A DNA stretch of 64,000 nt, from positions 118,349 to 182,348 of the forward strand of contig JAHWKU010000002.1 of NCBI GenBank assembly GCA_019347715.1. Reading direction: 5' to 3'. The stretch's first letter is position 1; the number at the start of each line of letters is the position of its first letter. The notes under the pieces are model-generated. The model was not told where the DNA came from, made no database searches, and saw only the letters and a list, made by a program, of their open reading frames with translations. Made by a program: the position numbers and the translations under genes. This DNA comes from Actinomycetota bacterium (GTDB taxonomy: Bacteria > Actinomycetota > CADDZG01 > JAHWKV01). Shown here piece after piece: positions 420 through 63,692 of the stretch.

Positions 420-1556
420 ATGGAGTTATCCGCGCCTCAACTGAGCCATGCCGAGCCCAAGACGCTGGCGCGTCTCGCCGAGACCACGGCCGAAGGGCCG
501 GTCCTTTCCTTGTTCATGGAGCTTGGTCCTGCTTTCGCTACGCCCCAGGCGAGGCAGAGCGAGCTCAATTCTCTGATGACCCTCGCTCAGCGAGAGATCG
601 AGCAAGACGGAGCCAAAAAGGAACTGAGCGAGGCGCTTCCGGTGCTCAAAGATCATCTTCAAAACGATGAGGACTGGTGGAAGGACGCCAGAGGCGCAGC
701 CGTCTACTTCTCGCCCGACGAAATCTTCGAGGTCGTGAGATGTCTCGAGCCCCTGGAAACCAAGGCCGAGGTTTCAGCTTGGCCGCACATAGAACCCCTG
801 TCGGAAGTTGTGACCGGAGATCTTTGGTGCGTGATGATGATCAGCCGCACCATAGCCCGCTACCTGATGGGTTTTCCGAGGCGACTAAGAGAGGTCGAAT
901 CCATTGAGGATGATGTCCGCGGTCAGCACTCCCAAGGTGGCTGGTCTCAGGCGAGATTTGAGCGCTCGGTAGAAAAGGACGTTCAGGATCACATCAAGAA
1001 GTCCACGGAAGAGTTGCGCGAGCTTCTGGGGAAGACACGATTTGATTGCTTGGTTGTGGTCACGCTGCCGGAGATGTGGCCGGACGTTGAAAGGGAGCTG
1101 CATTCGGATTTGAAGGACCGCCTTGCAGGGGTTTTGGAGCTCGACATCGAGCACTCATCGGTCGACGAAGTACGCAGCGAAGTAGAACAGCTCGCAGAGG
1201 TGCGTGACAACGAGAAAGAGAGGGGACTGCTCGATGCTCTGCAAGAGGGCCTCGGCAGGGGCGAGCGCGCGGCCGGCGGAGTGACGCAGGTGTTCGCTGC
1301 TCTGGCCGAGAACCGGGTGGCCACCTTTCTCGTCGATGAGTCTTTCGAGCGGGATGGAGTCGCCTGCACGTCCTGTGGGTGGGCGGGCCAGCAAGGCAAG
1401 GAGTGTCCTGTCGATTCCAAGCCGCTTCGTCAAGGTGTTGACCTGAAGGATTGGGGGATGCGAAGAACTCTCGCCAGTTCCGGCGACGTGAGGGTTGTGA
1501 AGTTCCATCCCGACCTTCAGTCCCAGGAAGGTATCGGGGCAATACTCCGATACTGA
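420..1556 (+). CDS. baeRF1 / Vms1-Ankzf1-like eRF1-domain protein (putative peptidyl-tRNA hydrolase or ribosome-rescue factor) with C-terminal Zn-ribbon
   Basis: 378 aa. The central motif RGQHSQGGWSQARFERSVEK parallels the eRF1/Dom34 GGQ-loop region (GGQSALRFARL). The C-terminus has CTSCGW...KECP cysteines. Size and architecture match the actinobacterial Rv2629-like family. Confidence 0.6.
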   Translation: MELSAPQLSHAEPKTLARLAETTAEGPVLSLFMELGPAFATPQARQSELNSLMTLAQREIEQDGAKKELSEALPVLKDHLQNDEDWWKDARGAAVYFSPDEIFEVVRCLEPLETKAEVSAWPHIEPLSEVVTGDLWCVMMISRTIARYLMGFPRRLREVESIEDDVRGQHSQGGWSQARFERSVEKDVQDHIKKSTEELRELLGKTRFDCLVVVTLPEMWPDVERELHSDLKDRLAGVLELDIEHSSVDEVRSEVEQLAEVRDNEKERGLLDALQEGLGRGERAAGGVTQVFAALAENRVATFLVDESFERDGVACTSCGWAGQQGKECPVDSKPLRQGVDLKDWGMRRTLASSGDVRVVKFHPDLQSQEGIGAILRY

Positions 1557-1569
1557 AAGGAGGTTCGTT

Positions 1570-2052
1570 ATGGGAAAGGGCAAAGCAAAACGCGAAAGTA
1601 GTGGACTAAAGAAGCTGCTACTGGCGGCGGGAGCGGGGGCCTTGGCTCTCTATCTATTCGATCCCGATCGCGGCAAGGGGCGCCGTGCGAGGGCCCGCGA
1701 CCAGATCATGGGTAAGTTGAGAAGGACCGAAAGAAGAGTGGCGAGAACCGGCCGCCATCTTGCCTCTGACGCAGAGGGACTACGGCAGAGGGTCGCTCAT
1801 TCATCGTCGGATGCCAAGACGTACGACGACGTTACTCTCGCTCAGAAAGTTTCGAGCGAGTTATTCGTTGATCCGCAGATACCGAAGGATCGGATCAACA
1901 TCAATGCTGAAGACGGCGTCATAGTCCTGCGCGGTGAAGTCGATGAACAAAAGGACGTAAAGAAGATCGAGCGACTGGTAAAGAAGATCGACGGAGTCGA
2001 AGACGTAAACAACCTTCTTCACCTGGTTGGGACACCAGCTCCAAACAAGTAA
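1570..2052 (+). CDS. BON domain-containing protein
   Basis: 160 aa with N-terminal hydrophobic segment. C-terminal ININAEDGVIVLRGEVDEQKDVKKIERLVKKIDGVEDVNNLL is a BON (OsmY-like) domain. Strong RBS AAGGAGG before the ATG. Confidence 0.7.
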   Translation: MGKGKAKRESSGLKKLLLAAGAGALALYLFDPDRGKGRRARARDQIMGKLRRTERRVARTGRHLASDAEGLRQRVAHSSSDAKTYDDVTLAQKVSSELFVDPQIPKDRININAEDGVIVLRGEVDEQKDVKKIERLVKKIDGVEDVNNLLHLVGTPAPNK

Positions 2053-2065
2053 TCCCGGAGCGGAA

Positions 2066-4267
2066 CTAGCTCCTGGATGGGACGAGGATCGCTATGGCAT
2101 CCTGCAGAGTATCTACTCCACGGATGTCGATCCTCCCGTTACGCACGCTTTCTAGGTCCTCGACCGGTACGAGAAAAAGTCCGGCGTCTGCGTCTTGAGC
2201 TGAGGATCTTTTCTGAACGAGTCCTCCAACGGCACCGACGTCACCGCCGAGCAGGATGGTTCCAGATGCTGCGATCGTTCTTCCCTGAGCAAGGTCCCGC
2301 TCGTCGAGCATGTCCGCAATGGCGAGGGCGTATGCGAGACCGGCCGATGGCCCCCCGATGTCTTCAGCTTCCTCAAAGGTGATCTCGAAGGGTAAATCGA
2401 CGTTCAAATCTCTTGTCTCAACCCAGACGCCGATCGCCACCAGCCCCTCCTGGTCCTGGAACTGTCTGCTGGCCACCGAGAGCTCGAGCGTCTCTCCGTT
2501 GCGTTCTACTTGAAAGGCAAAATTCGTACCTGCAGGCTTCGAGGTGACTATTCGTCGCAGATCGAGGATGGTTTTGATCGATTCCCCGTTGGCTGCGGTG
2601 AGAACATCGCCGTCTTGAAGGATCCCGTTTGCCGGAGCGTCGGGGAGAACTCCCAAGACTCTCGCTCCCGTCCCCTCGATCGATACGTCGAGGCCCACGG
2701 CCTGACCGGCGGCGGCTGCGGCGATCATCCGACTTTCTCGGAAGATGCTTCTCTGTTGCCGGGTGAACTCGCGTGGCTCTACCCCTTCGGGTATCAGCGC
2801 GGAGAGGGGAATGAGGTTTTGTTCGGGATGAAAGAACGCATAGATCGCCCCGAGCGCACTCGGCTGATCGACTCTAACGGTCACGAGCAGATACTCCCCG
2901 TTGACTTCGCCGGCCGGCACTCCTGTGATCTCGATTCCCTCTGTCACGTTTTCGGTAGGACCGGGCATGATCACTGCTAGAGGAGGGTGATAGAAGGCCC
3001 CAGCGGCCAGGGCGATCGCAAGAAAGACAATTACCCATACCAGCGTTCCTGCGCGCCGGGCCTGTTCCGTCGGTTCGAAGCCCCTGGCCTCCTCCAGCTC
3101 CAGGACTTTGGAGACGTCGGAGGCCGAGACGATCCCAATCAGGCGATCGTTGTCCAGCACGATGCCTCTTCCTGGGGGAGAACGGAGTGCAGCGAAGGCA
3201 TCCATGACCGGCGTTTCCGACGCAAAAGCCGGAGTCTCCTCGCGCGTGAGCATCACGCCGTGAACTCTGATCTCGTCTCGATCTTCCTGCGGAACTTCTC
3301 CTGCCAGCTTGAGCGAAATGAGTCCGACTACCGTGCCCTGCTCGGCAACTGGATAAGCCGAGTGACCTTTGGGTTTCACGACATCGTTTAGGAATTCGTT
3401 GATGGTGAGATTCGGGTCGACCACTACCGGGTCGGGGGTCATGAGGTCTCTCACCGTTAGCCCACGAAATGCCCTGCGGACTACAACGAACGCAGCTTCA
3501 CCCTGCGCCGCCTGCAGCAGGAACCAGCCGAGAAAGATGAACCAGATTCCTCCGGTGAAAGCCGAATTGAACAGACCAAGGATCCCGAAAGCGATGAGTA
3601 CATAGGCAAAAGCCTTGCCGGCTCTGGCTGCCGAGATAGTGGCTGCCGTGAAGCTTTGCTGCCGGTGCCACAGCCAAGAGCGAAGCACCCGGCCCCCGTC
3701 GAGTGGAAGGGCCGGGACCATATTGAACGCCACAACGATCGCGTTGATGCGAGCGAGGTACTCGGCCCCACCCCGAAAGGCGAGGGGGAGATCGAGGCTG
3801 GTGGCGGCGAGCGCGGCCAGATAAAAGACTCCTGCCAGGAGCACCGAAACGATGGGTCCTGCTATGGCGATCCGAAACTCTGCGCCGGCAGAGGGAAACA
3901 TGCCCTCGAATCGAGCCACTCCCCCGAAGAGCCAAAGTGTGATGTCTCCGACCTTCATCCCCTCTCTTATCGCTCTGAAGGAATGACCGAGCTCGTGCAG
4001 GAGGATAGATGCGAAAAAGACAACAGCGGTCACGATTCCCATCACCAGATAGGTGCGTTCGGATAGCCCTGGATAGGTAGATGGGAACAGCCTGTCGGAC
4101 AGCGACCAAGCGATGAGACCGAAAACGAGAACCCAGGTCCAATGCGCTCCGATCCTGATTCCCCGGACGCGCATGATCGTGAAGCTGGGCGCGAGCGGAT
4201 CTTCGGCGCCGGCCCTCTTCCGCCGGGGACGCTTTTCGGTGGAGTTCACTTCAGGCAGCTGATTCAT
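2066..4267 (-). CDS. Fusion protein: M50 site-2 protease with CBS pair, followed by a TM segment, PDZ domain and Lon-like (S16, YlbL-type) protease domain
   Basis: Single 733-aa ORF. The N-terminal half has HELGH (HExxH) and a DG motif in TM helices plus two CBS-like segments (Rip/M50 with CBS). After residue ~400 comes a hydrophobic helix, a PDZ-like region (GDVLTAANGESIKT) and the Lon C-terminal catalytic region (GPSAGLAYALAIADML). No in-frame ATG/GTG/TTG at the junction that would start a separate YlbL-like gene. Confidence 0.65.
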   Translation of the reverse strand: MNQLPEVNSTEKRPRRKRAGAEDPLAPSFTIMRVRGIRIGAHWTWVLVFGLIAWSLSDRLFPSTYPGLSERTYLVMGIVTAVVFFASILLHELGHSFRAIREGMKVGDITLWLFGGVARFEGMFPSAGAEFRIAIAGPIVSVLLAGVFYLAALAATSLDLPLAFRGGAEYLARINAIVVAFNMVPALPLDGGRVLRSWLWHRQQSFTAATISAARAGKAFAYVLIAFGILGLFNSAFTGGIWFIFLGWFLLQAAQGEAAFVVVRRAFRGLTVRDLMTPDPVVVDPNLTINEFLNDVVKPKGHSAYPVAEQGTVVGLISLKLAGEVPQEDRDEIRVHGVMLTREETPAFASETPVMDAFAALRSPPGRGIVLDNDRLIGIVSASDVSKVLELEEARGFEPTEQARRAGTLVWVIVFLAIALAAGAFYHPPLAVIMPGPTENVTEGIEITGVPAGEVNGEYLLVTVRVDQPSALGAIYAFFHPEQNLIPLSALIPEGVEPREFTRQQRSIFRESRMIAAAAAGQAVGLDVSIEGTGARVLGVLPDAPANGILQDGDVLTAANGESIKTILDLRRIVTSKPAGTNFAFQVERNGETLELSVASRQFQDQEGLVAIGVWVETRDLNVDLPFEITFEEAEDIGGPSAGLAYALAIADMLDERDLAQGRTIAASGTILLGGDVGAVGGLVQKRSSAQDADAGLFLVPVEDLESVRNGRIDIRGVDTLQDAIAILVPSRS

Positions 4268-5270
4268 TCAACCTGTCGATCAAAAGGCGAAGTCTTCCCG
4301 CATGCAGTCGGTGGAATTTGATTGCGATGCGCGGAAGATCGGGGACATCATCATCTCTCTTTTCTGCCGGAGATGGTTCCGCCCGCTCGATGGGGGCGGT
4401 AAGCGCGTCCGAAAACTCATCGAAGAGTTCTTTCAAAACGGATTCGGGGGGTTCGACATTTAGTCTCAGGATTAGAGTGCCTCCCACGAATCTCTGAGAG
4501 TGATAGACGCGATAGAAGTTCTCGATCTCCTCGACGGCATCCTCGATCCGGTGGTAGCAGCGATAGAGATTCAGGTCGCTGTCATCGATCATCCTTCGCT
4601 TAAGGAGCTCGTTTCTTAGGTGCTCGTCGAAGGCCTTCCAGTAAGTGCCACCTTCCGGCTCGAGCATCACGATCGGATGAAGGTCGCTTTTGCCCGTTTG
4701 CACCAGCGTCAAGAGTTCGTAAGCCTCGTCTAGAGTCCCGAAGCCCCCGGGAAGAAGGACGAATGCATCGGCCTCTTTCATAAACATGAGTTTGCGCGTG
4801 AAGAAGTATTTGAAGTTGATCAGCTTCGGATCTCCCGCGATCACCGGGTTCGGTTCGGCCTCGAACGGAAGACGGATGTTGACGCCGAAGGATCTCGCAC
4901 CACCTGCCCCCTCGTGACCCGCTTCCATGATCCCGGGGCCTGCCCCGGTGACCACCATCCAGCCGAGGTCGGCGATCAGCTTCGAGAAATCTCTGGCCAC
5001 CTCGTATTCCGGGTCGCCCTTGGCGGTGCGGGCCGACCCGAAGATGCTCACTTTGCGGGTATCGCGGTAAGCGCCGAAGATCTGAAAGGCGTAGCGCATT
5101 TCTTTGAGCGCCGAGTTTGCGAGGTTGCGATCGGTACGGGAGATGGGATCGCGGGCCATGCGCATAACGGTCGCCAGCATCTCAAACATGAGATCGTCGC
5201 CGGGGGCATAGCGCTCCAGAACGCCATGCAGCTCCCGATCCAGTTCCGCATCGCCGCTGCCATACTTCAT
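4251..5270 (-). CDS. LOG family protein (TIGR00730 Rossmann fold, putative cytokinin riboside 5'-monophosphate phosphoribohydrolase-like)
   Basis: 339 aa with the PGGFGTLDE motif and the GSAR...G signature of the LOG/YvdD family. Overlaps the downstream protease gene by 17 nt, so they form an operon. Confidence 0.75.
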   Translation of the reverse strand: MKYGSGDAELDRELHGVLERYAPGDDLMFEMLATVMRMARDPISRTDRNLANSALKEMRYAFQIFGAYRDTRKVSIFGSARTAKGDPEYEVARDFSKLIADLGWMVVTGAGPGIMEAGHEGAGGARSFGVNIRLPFEAEPNPVIAGDPKLINFKYFFTRKLMFMKEADAFVLLPGGFGTLDEAYELLTLVQTGKSDLHPIVMLEPEGGTYWKAFDEHLRNELLKRRMIDDSDLNLYRCYHRIEDAVEEIENFYRVYHSQRFVGGTLILRLNVEPPESVLKELFDEFSDALTAPIERAEPSPAEKRDDDVPDLPRIAIKFHRLHAGRLRLLIDRLNESAA

Positions 5271-5351
5271 CCACCCATCGTAACCGCCTCCCGGGACTTC
5301 CCCCCCGGGAGGCGCGACTCACAAATATTTCCAGTGTGAAGCGGGTAAAGA

Positions 5352-6047
5352 ATGTGCGCCGTGAGGAGATTTGCGATCGGACTGGCCATGCTGGTTCTCA
5401 CCGCGGCCTGCAACATCCCCCGTGACCCCGAAGGAACATTGGAGCGCGTCACTGGCGGAACCCTTCGAGTGGGGATCACCGAGAGCGATCCGTGGGTGAT
5501 CATTAAGGACGAACCAACCGGAGTCGAGGTGACCCTGGTCGAAGGGTTCGCGAAGACCCTCAGCGCGGACATCGAGTGGGTCGAGGGGACCGAGGCCGAC
5601 TTGATAGGAGCTTTGGAGCGACGTGAGCTGGACCTAGTGATCGGGGGTTTTACTTCCAACAGTCCGTGGGGGCAGAAGGCTGCCATCACGGTCCACTATC
5701 ACGAGGTGGTGGTGGTCGTTGCCGTGCCGGAAGGTGATGATCCTCCCAACGACCTAACCGGACAGGAGGTCACGGTCGAATCCCATTCGGAGACCGCCGG
5801 GCTGGTGGAGGACAAGGGGGCCGAGCCCAATCGCGTGCCTGAGATCGAGTCGGTCGAAGGCCCCACCGCGTTGGAGGACTACCGGCTGGAGAACCTCGAA
5901 GCCAAACCCACCGGTCACATATTGACGCGCCATAAACATTCGATGGCGGCCGCTCCCGGTGAAAACGCCTTTCTGGTAAGCCTGGAGAGGTACCTGCGCT
6001 CGAGGCGAGCCGACGTGCCTCGTCTTCTGCAGGAGTTCTCACAGTGA
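5352..6047 (+). CDS. Lipoprotein with substrate-binding-protein family 3-like (amino-acid SBP) domain
   Basis: Signal peptide with lipobox LTAAC. TLRVGITESDPW...VEGF...DLVIGGFT resembles the N-lobe of SBP_bac_3 proteins. Stop overlaps the start of the next gene (ATGA). Confidence 0.5.
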   Translation: MCAVRRFAIGLAMLVLTAACNIPRDPEGTLERVTGGTLRVGITESDPWVIIKDEPTGVEVTLVEGFAKTLSADIEWVEGTEADLIGALERRELDLVIGGFTSNSPWGQKAAITVHYHEVVVVVAVPEGDDPPNDLTGQEVTVESHSETAGLVEDKGAEPNRVPEIESVEGPTALEDYRLENLEAKPTGHILTRHKHSMAAAPGENAFLVSLERYLRSRRADVPRLLQEFSQ

Positions 6048-7015
6048 GCAGCCTTTGGGACGACCACGAACTGCCCCCCGACAAGGATCGGATCAACTCC
6101 AGGGCGGTCAAGATCGAGTGGATCACCATCATCTTTCTCATCTCGGCGATCGTGCTCATGTACTTCGCGCTCGGCTCGTCGCAGGCGATGAAGACGGCAT
6201 GGGTCGAAGACATCCTGAGCCTGATCCCGCCCATCGCCTTCCTATATGCCAACCGGGTCCGGCGTAGACCTCGGAACAAGGACTTCCCTTACGGGTATCA
6301 CCGAGCGGTCTCCATCGCCTTTTTGCTTGCGGCGATCGCGCTCTTCACCTTGGGGGCACTTCTGTTCATGGACTCGCTGATGAAGCTGCTGGCGTTCGAA
6401 CATCCCTCCATCGGAACGGTCGAGCTGATGGGCCGTCAGATCTGGCTCGGGTGGCTGATGATCGCAGTCCTCGCGTACACGACGGTCCCGGCGATCATCC
6501 TCGGCCGGATGAAACTGCCACTAGCTCGGCAGCTCCACGACAAGGTCCTTCACGCCGATGCAGAGATGAACAAAGCCGACTGGCTGACCGCCGTCGCAGC
6601 CATGCTGGGAATCCTCGGGATCGGTCTAGGGTATTTCTGGGCCGATGCCGTTGCCGCCATCGTCATCTCTCTCGACATCCTCTATGACGGTTTCAAGAAC
6701 CTAAAGGGCGTGGTCTGGGATCTGATGGACGCCTCTCCCCGAACCGTCGAGCACGAAAAGACCGATCCTCTTCCGGCCCGCCTGGAGACCGAGCTGGCGA
6801 AGCTGCCGTACGTGAGCGCCGTGAAGATCAGGCTTCGAGAAGAGGGCCACGTGTACTTCGGCGAGGCATGGATCAAATTTCGCGGCGGAGAGGACATCGC
6901 AAAGCGAGCGACCGAGGCGGCCGAGCACGCCCGCTCCCTCGACTGGCGGATGCACGACCTGGCGGTGATGCCGGTGGAGGAACTTCCCGAAGAGTTGCCT
7001 GACCGCGAGCATTGA
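6044..7015 (+). CDS. Cation diffusion facilitator (CDF) family transporter
   Basis: 323 aa with six predicted TM helices and the CDF signature region (FPYGYHRAVSIAFLLAA...), plus a C-terminal cytoplasmic domain. Confidence 0.75.
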   Translation: MSSLWDDHELPPDKDRINSRAVKIEWITIIFLISAIVLMYFALGSSQAMKTAWVEDILSLIPPIAFLYANRVRRRPRNKDFPYGYHRAVSIAFLLAAIALFTLGALLFMDSLMKLLAFEHPSIGTVELMGRQIWLGWLMIAVLAYTTVPAIILGRMKLPLARQLHDKVLHADAEMNKADWLTAVAAMLGILGIGLGYFWADAVAAIVISLDILYDGFKNLKGVVWDLMDASPRTVEHEKTDPLPARLETELAKLPYVSAVKIRLREEGHVYFGEAWIKFRGGEDIAKRATEAAEHARSLDWRMHDLAVMPVEELPEELPDREH

Positions 7016-62099: not shown

Positions 62100-62651
62100 G
62101 TGCGAGTCATCGCGGGATCCGCCGGCGGCAGGAAGCTCCGCACCCTGAAGGGGACGGAAACTAGACCAACCTCAGACCGGGTTCGCGAAGCCCTCTTCTC
62201 ATCGATAGGGGAGCTGGTGGATGGTGCCACGGTCCTCGACCTGTATGCGGGCTCAGGCGCGCTCGGGATCGAAGCTCTATCCCGCGGCGCCTCTCACGCC
62301 ACTTTCGTGGAAGGCAACACCGCGGCGGTCGAAGTGATCGAACGGAACTTGGAAGAGCTCGGATTCAGGCCTCGTGCAGATGTGATCCAGGCAGATGCCG
62401 CGGTCTTCGTTGCGGGGCCTTCCGTGAAGTCATACGACCTGGTCCTGATTGACCCCCCTTACTCCGTCGGCCTACCATCGGATGTGCTCGAGGGGCTTCT
62501 CGGCCATTTGAACCAGGACGCTCTGGTGGTGGTGGAAGCCTCGTCCCGTCTAGGTGAAGTCGCAACACCCGAGGGATACCTCCTCGGCCATAGAAAGAAA
62601 TACGGAGATACCATGCTCGTCTTCATGAATCCGCTCGGACCGAAGTCTTGA
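62100..62651 (+). CDS. rsmD: 16S rRNA (guanine966-N2)-methyltransferase
   Basis: MRVIAGSAGGRKL...LDLYAGSGALGIEALSRGA...DPPY signature. Confidence 0.85.
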   Translation: MRVIAGSAGGRKLRTLKGTETRPTSDRVREALFSSIGELVDGATVLDLYAGSGALGIEALSRGASHATFVEGNTAAVEVIERNLEELGFRPRADVIQADAAVFVAGPSVKSYDLVLIDPPYSVGLPSDVLEGLLGHLNQDALVVVEASSRLGEVATPEGYLLGHRKKYGDTMLVFMNPLGPKS

Positions 62652-63133
62652 CGATCGCATTGTGCCCGGGATCGTTCGATCCTCCAACCAACGGTCACCT
62701 CGATGTGGTCGAGCGGGCGAGCCGCCACTTCGAGAGAGTGATCGTCGCAGTGGTTCGCAACCCGAAAAAGCAGGGACTCTTTGAGGAAGAAGAAAGAGTC
62801 GCAATGATGAAGGAAGTCCTTAGCCATCTCGACAACGTCGAGATGATCGTTCATGAGGGCTTATTGGTCGACCTCGCTAAGGAAAGCGGCGCAGGAGTAA
62901 TAGTGAAGGGATTGCGCGCTCTCTCGGATGTTGAATACGAGCTGCAGATGGCTCAAATGAATGCCAGTCTCCTAAGCCAGGTGGACACCGTATTCGTTGC
63001 GACGGATCCAAAGTGGAGCTTCGTGTCATCGAGTCTGGTCAAAGAAGTTGCCAGGCTTGGAGGAGATGTCTCAAAGCTCGTTCCTCCGGTCGTTTCGACG
63101 GCTCTGGCTCGCAAGTTCGGCACGACCAACTAG
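62648..63133 (+). CDS. coaD: Phosphopantetheine adenylyltransferase
   Basis: CPGSFDPPTNGHLDVVERA (T/HxGH motif) and full-length CoaD similarity. Confidence 0.9.
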   Translation: MTIALCPGSFDPPTNGHLDVVERASRHFERVIVAVVRNPKKQGLFEEEERVAMMKEVLSHLDNVEMIVHEGLLVDLAKESGAGVIVKGLRALSDVEYELQMAQMNASLLSQVDTVFVATDPKWSFVSSSLVKEVARLGGDVSKLVPPVVSTALARKFGTTN

Positions 63134-63161: not shown

Positions 63162-63692
63162 ATGGATTTGATGGACGAACTCGATCAGGTAATCGAAAAG
63201 ATCAGAGGGGCCAAGCCGGTGCCCCTTTCGGCTTCAGCAATGATCAACAAGCAAGAGATCCTCGACCATCTCGAATCGATCAAGCAGTCCGCCCCAGAAG
63301 AGCTCAAACAAGCGCGCTGGGTCATGCGTGACCGAGAAGAGGTTCTGCAATCCACTCAGCGTCAGTCCGAGAAGATGCTCGCCGACGCCCAAGCCGAACG
63401 GGACCGGTTGGTGGCAAAAACCGAGATCGTCGCCGCGGCGAACGCGGAGGCCGACAAGATCATCGACGACGCAAAAAGCCGGGCCAGAGAGATCCGAATG
63501 GAGGCAGAAGACTACGTCGATGCCAAGCTGGCCAGCTTCGAGGTGGTGCTCCAAAAGACACTTTCGGCTGTCGAAAAAGGCCGGGAGAGATTGAGAGGGC
63601 GCCTCGATCTCCCCAAGGAGCCCGAGCCCGAAGTCGAAGAGGAGCAGCCCCAGCCCACCGAGACGGGAAACGTGCGCATTCGGCGGCCGTAA
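63162..63692 (+). CDS. Hypothetical coiled-coil protein (ATP-synthase-b-like / DivIVA-like heptad pattern), between coaD and yceD
   Basis: 176 aa, highly charged, alpha-helical heptad composition. RBS GGGATAAGG upstream. Confidence 0.5.
   Translation: MDLMDELDQVIEKIRGAKPVPLSASAMINKQEILDHLESIKQSAPEELKQARWVMRDREEVLQSTQRQSEKMLADAQAERDRLVAKTEIVAAANAEADKIIDDAKSRAREIRMEAEDYVDAKLASFEVVLQKTLSAVEKGRERLRGRLDLPKEPEPEVEEEQPQPTETGNVRIRRP

Follow-up and report, generated by a model that had tools for sequence, protein, structure and literature searches.

A group-III site-2 protease core continued in frame by a YlbL-type PDZ/Lon protease in Acidimicrobiia-related Actinomycetota

In the classical order of events, the membrane-anchored PDZ serine protease DegS acts first and is followed by the site-2 protease (S2P) RseP (PMC9401612). 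Cleavage of SpoIVFA and BofA by two PDZ serine proteases, SpoIVB and CtpB, activates the group-III S2P SpoIVFB (PMC9042235). Group-III S2Ps carry CBS domains and have neither a PDZ nor an extracytoplasmic domain (PMC9401612). YlbL of Bacillus subtilis, an extracellular protease that requires its Ser–Lys dyad, targets YneA, which spans the membrane once (PMC6051672). The usual context of such YlbL-type PDZ-Lon proteins is a stand-alone gene next to rsmD/coaD, and a survey of PDZ proteins gives the combination of PDZ and Lon_C only as a separate family (PMC6411480).

Here, we describe a gene in a 64,000-nt stretch (the window) of contig JAHWKU010000002.1 (GCA_019347715.1) from an uncultured Actinomycetota bacterium, whose product joins, in one chain, a group-III S2P, one more TM helix (the seventh), and an extracytoplasmic serine protease of the YlbL type (PDZ/Lon_C). 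All coordinates are positions in this window. We found no description of an S2P–Lon fusion in the accessible literature, and an earlier mention in the S2P classification of Kinch (2006) is possible.

The protein resembles MjS2P (MJ0392), AfS2P, and B. subtilis SpoIVFB in having a six-TM M50 core with HExxH and NxxPxxxLDG motifs, after which come one or two CBS domains in the cytoplasm. Unlike group-III S2Ps, it continues beyond the CBS pair with one further TM helix, the seventh, and then with an extracytoplasmic PDZ/Lon protease of 308 residues. This C-terminal module shares with B. subtilis YlbL, Streptococcus mutans SepM, and Rv3194c-type proteins an N-in/C-out anchor, an extracytoplasmic location, a PDZ domain inserted in a Lon domain, and a Ser–Lys dyad in the absence of an AAA+ domain; in contrast to the usual YlbL-type context, it is neither stand-alone nor near rsmD/coaD. 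Like the fusion, the DegS–RseP and SpoIVB/CtpB–SpoIVFB systems combine an outside PDZ serine protease with an M50 intramembrane metalloprotease (PMC9401612, PMC9042235), but they do so on separate polypeptides, and their serine proteases belong to classes S1C (DegS), S55 (SpoIVB), and S41 (CtpB), whereas that of the fusion is of the S16 Lon type. RseP-type group-I S2Ps also have PDZ domains on the extracytoplasmic side. The RseP PDZ tandem is noncatalytic and lies between core TM helices, whereas the PDZ domain of the fusion sits in an appended protease, catalytically intact as judged by sequence, past the S2P C terminus.

Architecture of the fusion protein

A first-pass annotation of the window had described a single uninterrupted frame of 733 codons joining an M50–CBS protease to a TM-PDZ-Lon_C module of the YlbL type. 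The frame is present in the sequence, and the in-frame fusion is borne out by Pfam and NCBIfam domains and by full-length homologs. Its features are listed below.

2066..4267 (-): whole fusion gene, 733 codons from ATG 4267, stop codon at 2066-2068 (ORF list; Pfam M50, CBS, PDZ, and Lon_C)
4247..4249 (-): alternative, conserved GTG start at codon 7, giving a 727-aa product
3467..4183 (-): M50 (site-2 protease) membrane core, residues 29–267, with helices TM1 (44–64), TM2 (70–101), TM3 (127–157), TM4 (162–182), TM5 (206–232), and TM6 (237–267) and a membrane β-hairpin (105–121)
3983..3997 (-): HELGH zinc-binding/catalytic motif, residues 91–95 (H91, E92, H95), invariant in 26 diverse members
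3695..3724 (-): NMVPALPLDG, residues 182–191, with D190 as third zinc ligand; N182, P185, D190, and G191 invariant
3083..3454 (-): cytoplasmic CBS pair (Bateman module), residues 272–395 (Pfam CBS, twice)
3116-3136 (-): CBS2 motif GIVSASD, residues 378–384; G378, S381, and D384 invariant
3050..3082 (-): basic linker GFEPTEQARRA, residues 396–406, on the cytoplasmic side of TM7 (alignment; positive-inside count)
2993..3049 (-): TM7 signal-anchor helix, residues 407–425, running from the cytoplasm to the outside (Kyte–Doolittle peak 2.38; AF2 helix)
2069..2992 (-): extracytoplasmic YlbL-type module, residues 426–733, made up of an N-terminal Lon subdomain (426–524), the inserted PDZ domain (525–598), and the catalytic Lon_C part (599–728)
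2474..2695 (-): PDZ domain, residues 525–598 (Pfam PDZ_2, 8.2e-9; DegP and YlbL PDZ matches)
2339..2356 (-): GGPSAG, residues 638–643, with nucleophile Ser641; invariant in 26 members and also kept in relatives that stand alone or are cNMP-fused
2210..2212 (-): Lys686, general base of the Ser–Lys dyad; invariant in the same 26 and in stand-alone and cNMP-fused relatives

Peptidase_M50 (4.3e-19), the two CBS domains (7.4e-14), PDZ_2, and Lon_C (8.8e-6) all score above their Pfam gathering scores, and the HELGH, NMVPALPLDG, and GGPSAG motifs and K686 were confirmed at the residues listed. The N-terminal half has the S2P membrane-core fold, with the HExxH motif inside a TM helix (AF2 helix 70–101), and it belongs to the site-2 protease family with a predicted intramembrane cleavage activity. 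The CBS domains lie C-terminal to the core on the cytoplasmic side, as in group-III S2Ps, and the tandem matches that of AfS2P (5g5r/5g5x; ~30% identity). The CBS pair may bind nucleotide, as suggested by its conserved GxxSxxD motif and the nucleotide-bound AfS2P CBS structure. Group III is described as having no PDZ or extracytoplasmic domain (PMC9401612), and here a PDZ domain and Lon_C follow TM7; the protein is thus noncanonical, a group-III core to which another module has been joined.

At the junction, codons 380–431 contain no ATG, GTG, or TTG, and the earliest candidates, GTG432 and ATG434, both lie past the TM helix. The earlier proposal that the second module cannot be translated separately thus holds for the module with its anchor helix. 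P0123, P0125, P0133, and P0189, all stand-alone proteins, have an N-terminal helix that aligns with TM7; P0123 and P0125 begin exactly at this helix and have in common with the fusion an FY(H/R)PP motif after it. No stop or start codon separates the group-III S2P from this helix, which is the native N-in/C-out signal anchor of a YlbL-type protease. According to predicted topology, the chain as a result carries the PDZ domain and the Lon-like Ser–Lys protease on its extracytoplasmic side. TM topology prediction puts the Lon module outside the cell; the N-terminal tail contains 9 K+R, the 196–218 loop contains 4, and the C-terminal module has 43 acidic and 22 basic residues. The AF2 model (pLDDT 83.1) contains seven TM helices, and its pTM of 0.66 leaves the relative placement of the modules unfixed.

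The C-terminal module combines a Lon protease fold and Ser–Lys dyad, without an AAA+ domain, with an internal PDZ domain that matches the YlbL PDZ structures 2kjp and 2kl1. Residues 410–706 match the NCBIfam model SepM_fam_S16 (NF041438; 2e-31) with 109.3 bits against an equivalog cutoff of 200 bits, and the module is thus a member of the SepM family, not a SepM ortholog. Ser641 and Lys686 are the counterparts of S234 and K279 in YlbL (PMC6051672). Judged by their motifs, both catalytic centers appear intact, and they are invariant across the family.

Family, conservation, and genomic neighborhood

The two modules had been described at first pass as normally separate, and each is indeed found solo in other lineages, M50–CBS in Thermoleophilia/Gaiellales and Rhodobacterales, and PDZ–Lon_C in related metagenomic Actinomycetota and in Rhodococcus. 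The stand-alone metagenomic relatives are 45 to 56% identical to the C-terminal module, whereas the Rhodococcus homolog P0189 is only ~30% identical. No YlbL gene was found within ±8 kb of unfused M50–CBS relatives.

A survey of the M50 plus Lon architecture in NCBI, JGI, ENA, and Logan assemblies revealed a recurrent, conserved fusion. Collinear full-length homologs with 49 to 97% identity occur in >120 protein clusters, a recurrence that excludes chance, and every one of the 120 best matches is full length. Species-representative genomes yielded 33 fused loci, none of which has a stop, start, or break at the junction or shows the two halves split with a start codon there. The family comprises ~22 to 25 clusters at 50% identity, found only in Acidimicrobiia and related MAGs, and all carriers are uncultured MAGs. 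The C-terminal module and the CBS pair are equally conserved, mean identity to the window protein being 0.46 to 0.55 for the former and 0.47 for the latter.

Candidate split versions among relatives were rejected. P0141, on a long-read contig, is called as two genes (181 + 509 aa) with the break inside M50; L025 and L035, from nanopore-type long-read MAGs, have frameshifts away from the junction; and L021 and L060 run off the ends of their contigs. That a sequencing indel or chimeric assembly merged two adjacent genes, as the two-gene call of P0141 might suggest, is scarcely credible given the >120 independent full-length clusters, the 33 unbroken loci, a collinear and nearly gap-free junction alignment (only five insertion columns over residues 380–440 in 26 members), and the position of the P0141 split away from the module boundary; because it is conserved, the fusion is real and not a sequencing error.

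In an NJ tree of M50 halves, the fused proteins form one clade, with one solo M50–CBS form (L052) nested inside, and the C-terminal module is therefore apparently losable. The fusion arose once, in an Acidimicrobiia-related actinomycetotal lineage, and has since been kept, duplicated, and sometimes stripped of its CBS pair. Another architecture with the YlbL-type module, cNMP_binding-TM-PDZ-Lon_C, was found in P0144, P0259, P0263, P0268, and P0279. These proteins share with the fusion the module and its anchor helix and have a cytoplasmic nucleotide-binding domain fused at the N-terminal end, but they lack M50, and their sensor is a cyclic-nucleotide domain instead of a CBS pair. We know of no characterized member.

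The neighboring genes considered are the following.

4251..5270 (-): LOG/TIGR00730-family gene, 339 aa, upstream of the fusion and translationally coupled; TGA stop at 4251-4253
62100-62651: rsmD
62648-63133: coaD
from ~63768: yceD, truncated

The upstream gene has a Lysine_decarbox domain (PF03641, 7.5e-26), scores 106.8 against the TIGR00730 cutoff of 96.35, and carries PGGFGTLDE at residue 174. The 17-nt overlap between this gene and the fusion, proposed at first pass, exists only if the window-specific ATG 4267 starts the fusion gene; the conserved GTG starts 1 nt past the LOG stop. In a DNA alignment, the GTG start in the syntenic loci L081 and L082 aligns with window codon 7, and ATG 4267 is ACG there. 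The proposed operon fared similarly: LOG and the fusion make up a genuine two-gene unit in the window and in L081 (69% identical), and they are cotranscribed in the window, but the pairing is not a general feature of the family. A scan of positions 1500-5500 gave 0 promoter-like sites and 7 terminator-like sites, scattered within genes, versus 3.4 expected. Because a LOG homolog is absent within 8 to 10 kb of every other, more distant fused locus, LOG is a local neighbor and not a component of the protease machine.

As the first-pass annotation had noted, rsmD-coaD-yceD is present at the far end of the window without a YlbL-type gene. This locus lies ~58 kb from the fused module, and no second M50 or YlbL homolog was found in the 64-kb window. 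RseA, SpoIVFA, and BofA are dedicated substrates or inhibitors in the DegS–RseP and SpoIVB/CtpB–SpoIVFB systems, whereas the fusion has no conserved counterpart gene nearby: no conserved substrate, anti-sigma factor, inhibitor, or other family-wide neighbor was found, the best neighbor cluster occurring at 6 of 39 loci. Sigma/anti-sigma Pfam families were absent from three annotated loci, save for STAS genes in one, and sub-clade neighbors have no Pfam family except for a Ser/Thr kinase and Hsp20.

A proposed two-compartment protease and its alternatives

The explanation that we favor, with fair confidence when taken as a whole, is a single-chain, two-compartment protease. Both proteases would act on the same clients, single-pass membrane proteins. 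In a site-1-like step, the outside Ser–Lys/PDZ module would trim or remove the extracytoplasmic part of the client, and in the site-2 step, the leftover TM segment would pass to the M50 core in that molecule for cleavage within the membrane. The CBS pair may tie this proteolysis to the cytoplasmic adenine-nucleotide state. The conjunction of common clients, site-1 then site-2 order, and CBS coupling is put forward more tentatively. By itself, the fusion proves co-localization and stoichiometry, not sequential action. M50 is fused to the same YlbL-type module without CBS in P0319 and P0364 and with degenerate CBS in P0340, and fusions without CBS can reasonably be taken to strengthen the case for the regulated pair of proteases suggested at first pass. 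Linkage of the two functions is also favored by the action of YlbL on YneA and by the DegS–RseP and SpoIVB/CtpB–SpoIVFB precedents.

The same two-step chemistry could serve general membrane or envelope quality control, the outside protease degrading misfolded exported domains and M50 clearing TM stubs and small membrane proteins, with no signaling and no dedicated substrate. Such a role would fit the lack of a conserved partner or regulator gene, as well as the constitutive degradation of YneA by YlbL (PMC6051672) and the reported degradation of small membrane proteins by RseP as well (PMC10470546). One family member adjoins FtsH, ClpB, DnaJ, and GrpE, and Hsp20 lies downstream of the fusion in one sub-clade, but each of these heat-shock links is limited to a few loci, and a CBS sensor with a PDZ domain is typical of regulated rather than bulk proteolysis. 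We consider this explanation, which differs from the favored one in client range alone, unlikely.

SpoIVFB, which belongs to group III as the M50 half does, is activated when SpoIVB/CtpB cleave SpoIVFA and BofA (PMC9042235). By analogy, the target of the PDZ/Lon module might be not an M50 substrate but an inhibitor blocking the active-site cleft of M50, either a membrane protein or the module's own tether, so that its cleavage would turn M50 on. Such derepression seems improbable, since no BofA-like or SpoIVFA-like gene or conserved small membrane protein occurs family-wide, and a 160-aa single-pass protein lies upstream in one sub-clade only. In addition, the carriers are not known to form endospores.

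Still less probable is a polyprotein, made as one chain for coexpression and membrane insertion and then cut in the linker or TM7 to give two independent proteases. TM7 is oriented N-in/C-out, as S2P substrates are, and is tethered beside the M50 core, and solo forms of both halves are viable elsewhere. However, the linker shows no evident cleavage motif that is conserved (mean majority fraction 0.46), the center of TM7 has no obvious helix-breaking residues, and the fusion has long been kept across 37 to 97% identity with conserved linker length, which would be needless for mere coexpression. Finally, a noncatalytic gate like the RseP PDZ tandem, modeled on the extracytoplasmic PDZ domains that act as a size-exclusion filter in group-I S2Ps (PMC9401612), is very hard to reconcile with Ser641 in GGPSAG and Lys686 being invariant throughout the alignment of 26 members as well as in the relatives that stand alone or are cNMP-fused.

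Implications for stand-alone proteases

A conserved natural fusion is a strong hint that the M50–CBS and YlbL-type families cooperate, and it gives a testable prediction for model organisms in which the two genes are separate. Few substrates and activating signals of CBS-type S2Ps are known outside sporulation (SpoIVFB), and just two clients are known for the YlbL/SepM family. If Rosetta-stone logic applies, the extracytoplasmic partners that have long been sought for group-III S2Ps of other Gram-positive bacteria would be stand-alone YlbL/SepM/Rv3194c-type proteases. Rv3194c might then pair with the CBS-type S2P Rip3 (Rv2625c) in mycobacteria, and YlbL with one of the S2Ps present in Bacillus. 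The full proposition, a self-contained site-1 plus site-2 machine under CBS nucleotide control whose stand-alone counterparts are partners of group-III S2Ps elsewhere, is possible, if on the doubtful side. The single chain would be a compact structural target for studying transmembrane coupling between extracytoplasmic and intramembrane cleavage, possibly with CBS gating. The wiring of cytoplasmic nucleotide sensors to proteases acting outside the cell may be a broader theme, as the cNMP-binding–YlbL fusions suggest.

Architecture of the fusion gene and its product

The uninterrupted 733-codon frame described in the first-pass annotation is present on the minus strand, where it forms a unit with an upstream LOG gene. 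The genes referred to in the text are listed below.

Genes at the two ends of the window
420..1556, plus strand: baeRF_family10/acVLRF1 release-factor-like protein
1570..2052, plus strand: YtxH/BON-domain membrane protein, 13 nt after the baeRF gene
2066..4267, minus strand: fusion ORF, 733 codons, uninterrupted
4251..5270, minus strand: LOG ORF, 339 codons, preceding the fusion ORF
5352..6047, plus strand: SBP_bac_3 solute-binding-like gene
6044..7015, plus strand: cation-efflux (CDF) gene, overlapping the SBP_bac_3 gene by 4 nt
63162..63692, plus strand: coiled-coil ORF, 176 aa, between coaD and a truncated yceD, with weak DivIVA/FliJ/ATP-synt_B-like matches

The product contains a Peptidase_M50 domain, a pair of CBS domains, a PDZ domain, and the catalytic Lon_C part, each above the Pfam gathering score, and residues 410–706 match the NCBIfam model for SepM-family S16 serine proteases (2e-31, under the equivalog cut-off), which bears out the proposed joining of an M50–CBS site-2 protease (S2P) to a PDZ/Lon module. 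The LOG ORF encodes a LOG/TIGR00730 protein according to both Pfam and NCBIfam and has the PGGFGTLDE motif. As had been noted for the junction, codons 380–431 of the fusion ORF contain no ATG, GTG, or TTG; the first possible starts downstream of codon 380 (GTG432 and ATG434) lie past the transmembrane helix, and the anchored second module is therefore not separately translatable. The reported 17-nt overlap with the LOG gene holds only with ATG at 4267 as the start. A syntenic relative with 69% identity has ACG at this position, and its GTG start aligns with codon 7 of the window gene (4247–4249), which is 1 base past the LOG stop. The two genes are tightly coupled whichever start is used.

The fusion protein was modeled with AlphaFold (pLDDT 83.1, pTM 0.66), which gave the following segments.

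Segments of the AlphaFold model
Residues 44–64: helix
Residues 70–101: helix holding HELGH (91–95)
Residues 105–121: β-hairpin
Residues 127–157: helix
Residues 162–182: helix leading into NMVPALPLDG
Residues 206–232 and 237–267: helices
Residues 272–395: CBS pair
Residues 407–425: single helix after the CBS pair (TM7)
After TM7, up to residue 728: β-rich module (C-module)

The N-terminal tail has nine Lys/Arg residues, the loop at 196–218 has four (and no Asp/Glu), and the C-module has 22 versus 43 Asp/Glu. Hydropathy and positive-inside counts agree on a predicted topology in which the N terminus and the CBS pair are inside and the C-module is outside. In an alignment of 26 diverse members, H91, E92, and H95, N182, P185, and D190, G638–G643 including Ser641, and Lys686 are invariant (26/26), as are G378, S381, and D384 of the second CBS domain, which we take to be the ribose-phosphate–binding GhhS/TxxD/N motif. 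Ser641 and Lys686 are the counterparts of S234 and K279 in YlbL, both of which are needed for function in Bacillus subtilis (PMC6051672). These data show that one chain holds two protease active sites that are, as judged from their motifs, intact, that the two sites are placed across the membrane from each other, or inside it, and that the cytoplasmic CBS pair is placed between them in sequence.

Spread and origin of the fused family

Searching 5.8 billion protein clusters with the fusion protein produced 798 matches. The best 120 of these covered 95 to 100% of the query, were 701 to 779 aa long, shared 49 to 97% identity and an identical Pfam set, and were drawn from independent NCBI, JGI, ENA, and Logan assemblies. 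When one genome per GTDB species was scanned, 33 fused loci were found, with record titles naming Actinomycetota/Actinomycetes bacterium, Acidimicrobiales, Acidimicrobiia, Ilumatobacteraceae, and Acidimicrobiaceae. In none of the 33 is the module junction interrupted by a stop or a change of frame; contig ends truncate two of the loci, and in two long-read metagenome-assembled genomes (MAGs), frameshifts occur elsewhere in the gene. The concern that the fusion might be a sequencing error is thus settled by its recurrence, and an indel or chimera is effectively excluded. The protein P0141 (L087, 4403–6530) comes from a long-read contig of 375 kb and is split into two gene calls, an M50 protein of 181 aa followed by a CBS–PDZ–Lon_C protein of 509 aa; since the break falls within the M50 domain, it probably reflects a frameshift or pseudogene.

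Only five insertion columns surround the junction in the 26-member alignment. By part, mean identity to the window protein is as follows: M50 core, 0.67; CBS pair, 0.47; TM7, 0.54; Lon N-subdomain, 0.51; PDZ, 0.46; and Lon_C, 0.55. All parts are similarly conserved, and the data show that long-term purifying selection has kept the fused arrangement. A junction-spanning query (residues 270–560), run without a word index on 1.84 billion representatives at 50% identity, had 31 matches at E ≤ 1e-30, approximately 22 to 25 of them across the whole junction, which indicates that the family is real, yet small and limited to one lineage. All carriers are uncultured.

That the two modules are normally separate proteins was confirmed on both sides. 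The nearest relatives of the N-half without a C-module are M50–CBS proteins of Gaiellaceae, Thermoleophilia, Miltoncostaeaceae, and Solirubrobacterales (41–48% identity in the genome scan), followed by those of Rhodobacterales; such proteins stop at the equivalent of residue ~391–395, and no YlbL-like gene occurs within 8 kb of them. In a neighbor-joining tree of the M50–CBS halves, all fused sequences (32/32) fall in one clade. The only solo protein nested within it, a 392-aa M50–CBS protein (L052, 7971–9149), reflects either secondary loss or a long-branch/tree effect. The nearest stand-alone relatives of the C-half (P0123, P0125, P0133, and P0135; 44–55% identity) are separate genes with no M50 gene upstream. 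The closest, P0123 and P0125, start at the anchor helix or a few residues earlier, P0133 and P0135 have a longer basic leader, and all four share with the fusion an FY(H/R)PP motif after TM7. These starts and the common motif identify TM7 as the native signal anchor of the YlbL-type protease. A CBS-type S2P ends in the cytoplasm and the anchor of YlbL runs N-in/C-out, so joining them end to end leaves each half in its native topology. Two diverged paralogues, both fused, are present in each of at least three MAGs (OFTM18, L001 and L014; 0813_bin3, L002 and L060; YX3bin35, L008 and L083), which implies duplication of the fusion gene after its origin.

The YlbL-type module also occurs in two further fused contexts. 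P0319 (604 aa) is an M50–TM–PDZ–Lon_C protein without CBS that aligns collinearly with the window protein, to which its M50 core is 36% and its Lon module 40% identical; P0364 (611 aa) is built alike. P0340 (745 aa) is collinear over its full length (31% identity) and has a degenerate CBS region. The occurrence of the M50–YlbL link with or without CBS indicates that it is the two proteases that are coupled. The second context is cNMP_binding–TM–PDZ–Lon_C, found in P0144 (L088, 5001–6620), P0259, P0263, P0268, and P0279; P0168 and P0190 of this family lack PDZ and retain the Ser and Lys. These fusions show repeated tethering of a predicted outside protease to cytoplasmic nucleotide-binding domains.

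Genomic neighborhood

The SBP_bac_3 gene diverges upstream of the LOG–fusion unit across an 81-nt gap, and the YtxH/BON gene is convergent, 13 nt from the fusion stop. The 69%-identical relative (L081/L082) is fully syntenic (CDF, SBP, LOG, fusion, BON, baeRF), and relatives at 58% and 50% identity, the L083 and L084/L085 loci described below, have unrelated neighbors. The proposed operon with LOG thus stands for the window and its closest relative but does not extend to the 33 fused genome loci, none of which has a LOG homologue within 8 kb. When all flanking ORFs were clustered, no family reached more than 6 of 39 loci. LOG is therefore only locally an operon partner, in a family without a conserved genomic partner.

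The best neighbor cluster (6/39 loci) comprises a single-pass protein of 160 aa that matches no Pfam family. A sub-clade (L004, L008, L011, L014, and L024; e.g., L008, 5129–10778) has a conserved gene order in which genes for a membrane Ser/Thr kinase, the 160-aa protein, and a 323-aa protein without a Pfam match precede the fusion gene, and an Hsp20 gene converges on it; the 160-aa membrane protein may be a client. At L083 (1883–9675; MAG YX3bin35), the fusion follows two cNMP-binding regulators of the Crp type and two STAS genes (anti-sigma-antagonist-like). In one lineage only (L084/L085, 12188–22115; Acidimicrobiales), the fusion lies in a proteostasis neighborhood, beside diacylglycerol kinase, FtsH, ClpB, MerR_2 (HspR-like), DnaJ, and GrpE. 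The baeRF and YtxH/BON pair converging on the fusion gene is conserved in L081 and L082. The SBP_bac_3 and CDF pair, divergent from LOG, is syntenic in L081; it is unusual for a CDF exporter to be paired with a periplasmic binding protein.

The far end of the window carries recG, rsmD, coaD, the coiled-coil ORF, and a truncated yceD, and, as first reported, lacks a YlbL-type gene; the whole 64 kb contains no further M50 or YlbL homologue. The place of the coiled-coil ORF in the coaD–yceD interval is taken in Bacillus by ylbJ–ylbM, including ylbL. The location of the C-half differs from the rsmD/coaD context reported for the YlbL/SepM-type family (PMC6411480).

Relation to known proteases and possible function

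The fusion is built from two known kinds of protease. Its N-half has the defining features of M50 S2Ps and the C-terminal cytoplasmic CBS that is the hallmark of group III, from whose description (“no PDZ domain”) the fusion departs through the appended module. The C-half has the structure that defines YlbL/SepM-type S16 proteases and is not an equivalog of SepM. Source-database names are generic (“site-2 protease family protein,” “CBS domain-containing protein”), and JGI labels the fused proteins [quoted passage not shown]; automated annotation thus already shows the architecture. A full-text literature search, with the 2006 S2P classification outside its reach, found no published description or discussion of it.

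S2Ps typically cleave type-II membrane proteins within the TM segment, after the outside part has been shortened by a PDZ serine protease anchored in the membrane, as in the order DegS then RseP (PMC9401612). The group-III S2P SpoIVFB is turned on by PDZ serine proteases working outside the membrane (PMC9042235). YlbL interacts with the single-pass membrane protein YneA, which it is proposed to degrade; the interaction requires the TM segment of YneA, and purified YlbL without its own TM helix is inactive in vitro (PMC6051672). The two-protease device suggested in the first-pass annotation is plausible from the sequence. As the most economical reading, which we favor tentatively, one fused protein would perform both the outside and the intramembrane cleavage on the same clients, and the CBS pair would tie this proteolysis to adenine-nucleotide status. 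The main alternative, rather doubtful in our view, is that the same two-step chemistry serves quality control instead of signaling. A SpoIVFB-like derepression of the M50 half by the C-module is improbable. Post-translational separation into two enzymes is very unlikely, and an inert C-module is effectively excluded.

The fusion links two protease families, both poorly understood, in Rosetta-stone fashion and offers a compact model of how proteolysis might be coupled across the membrane.
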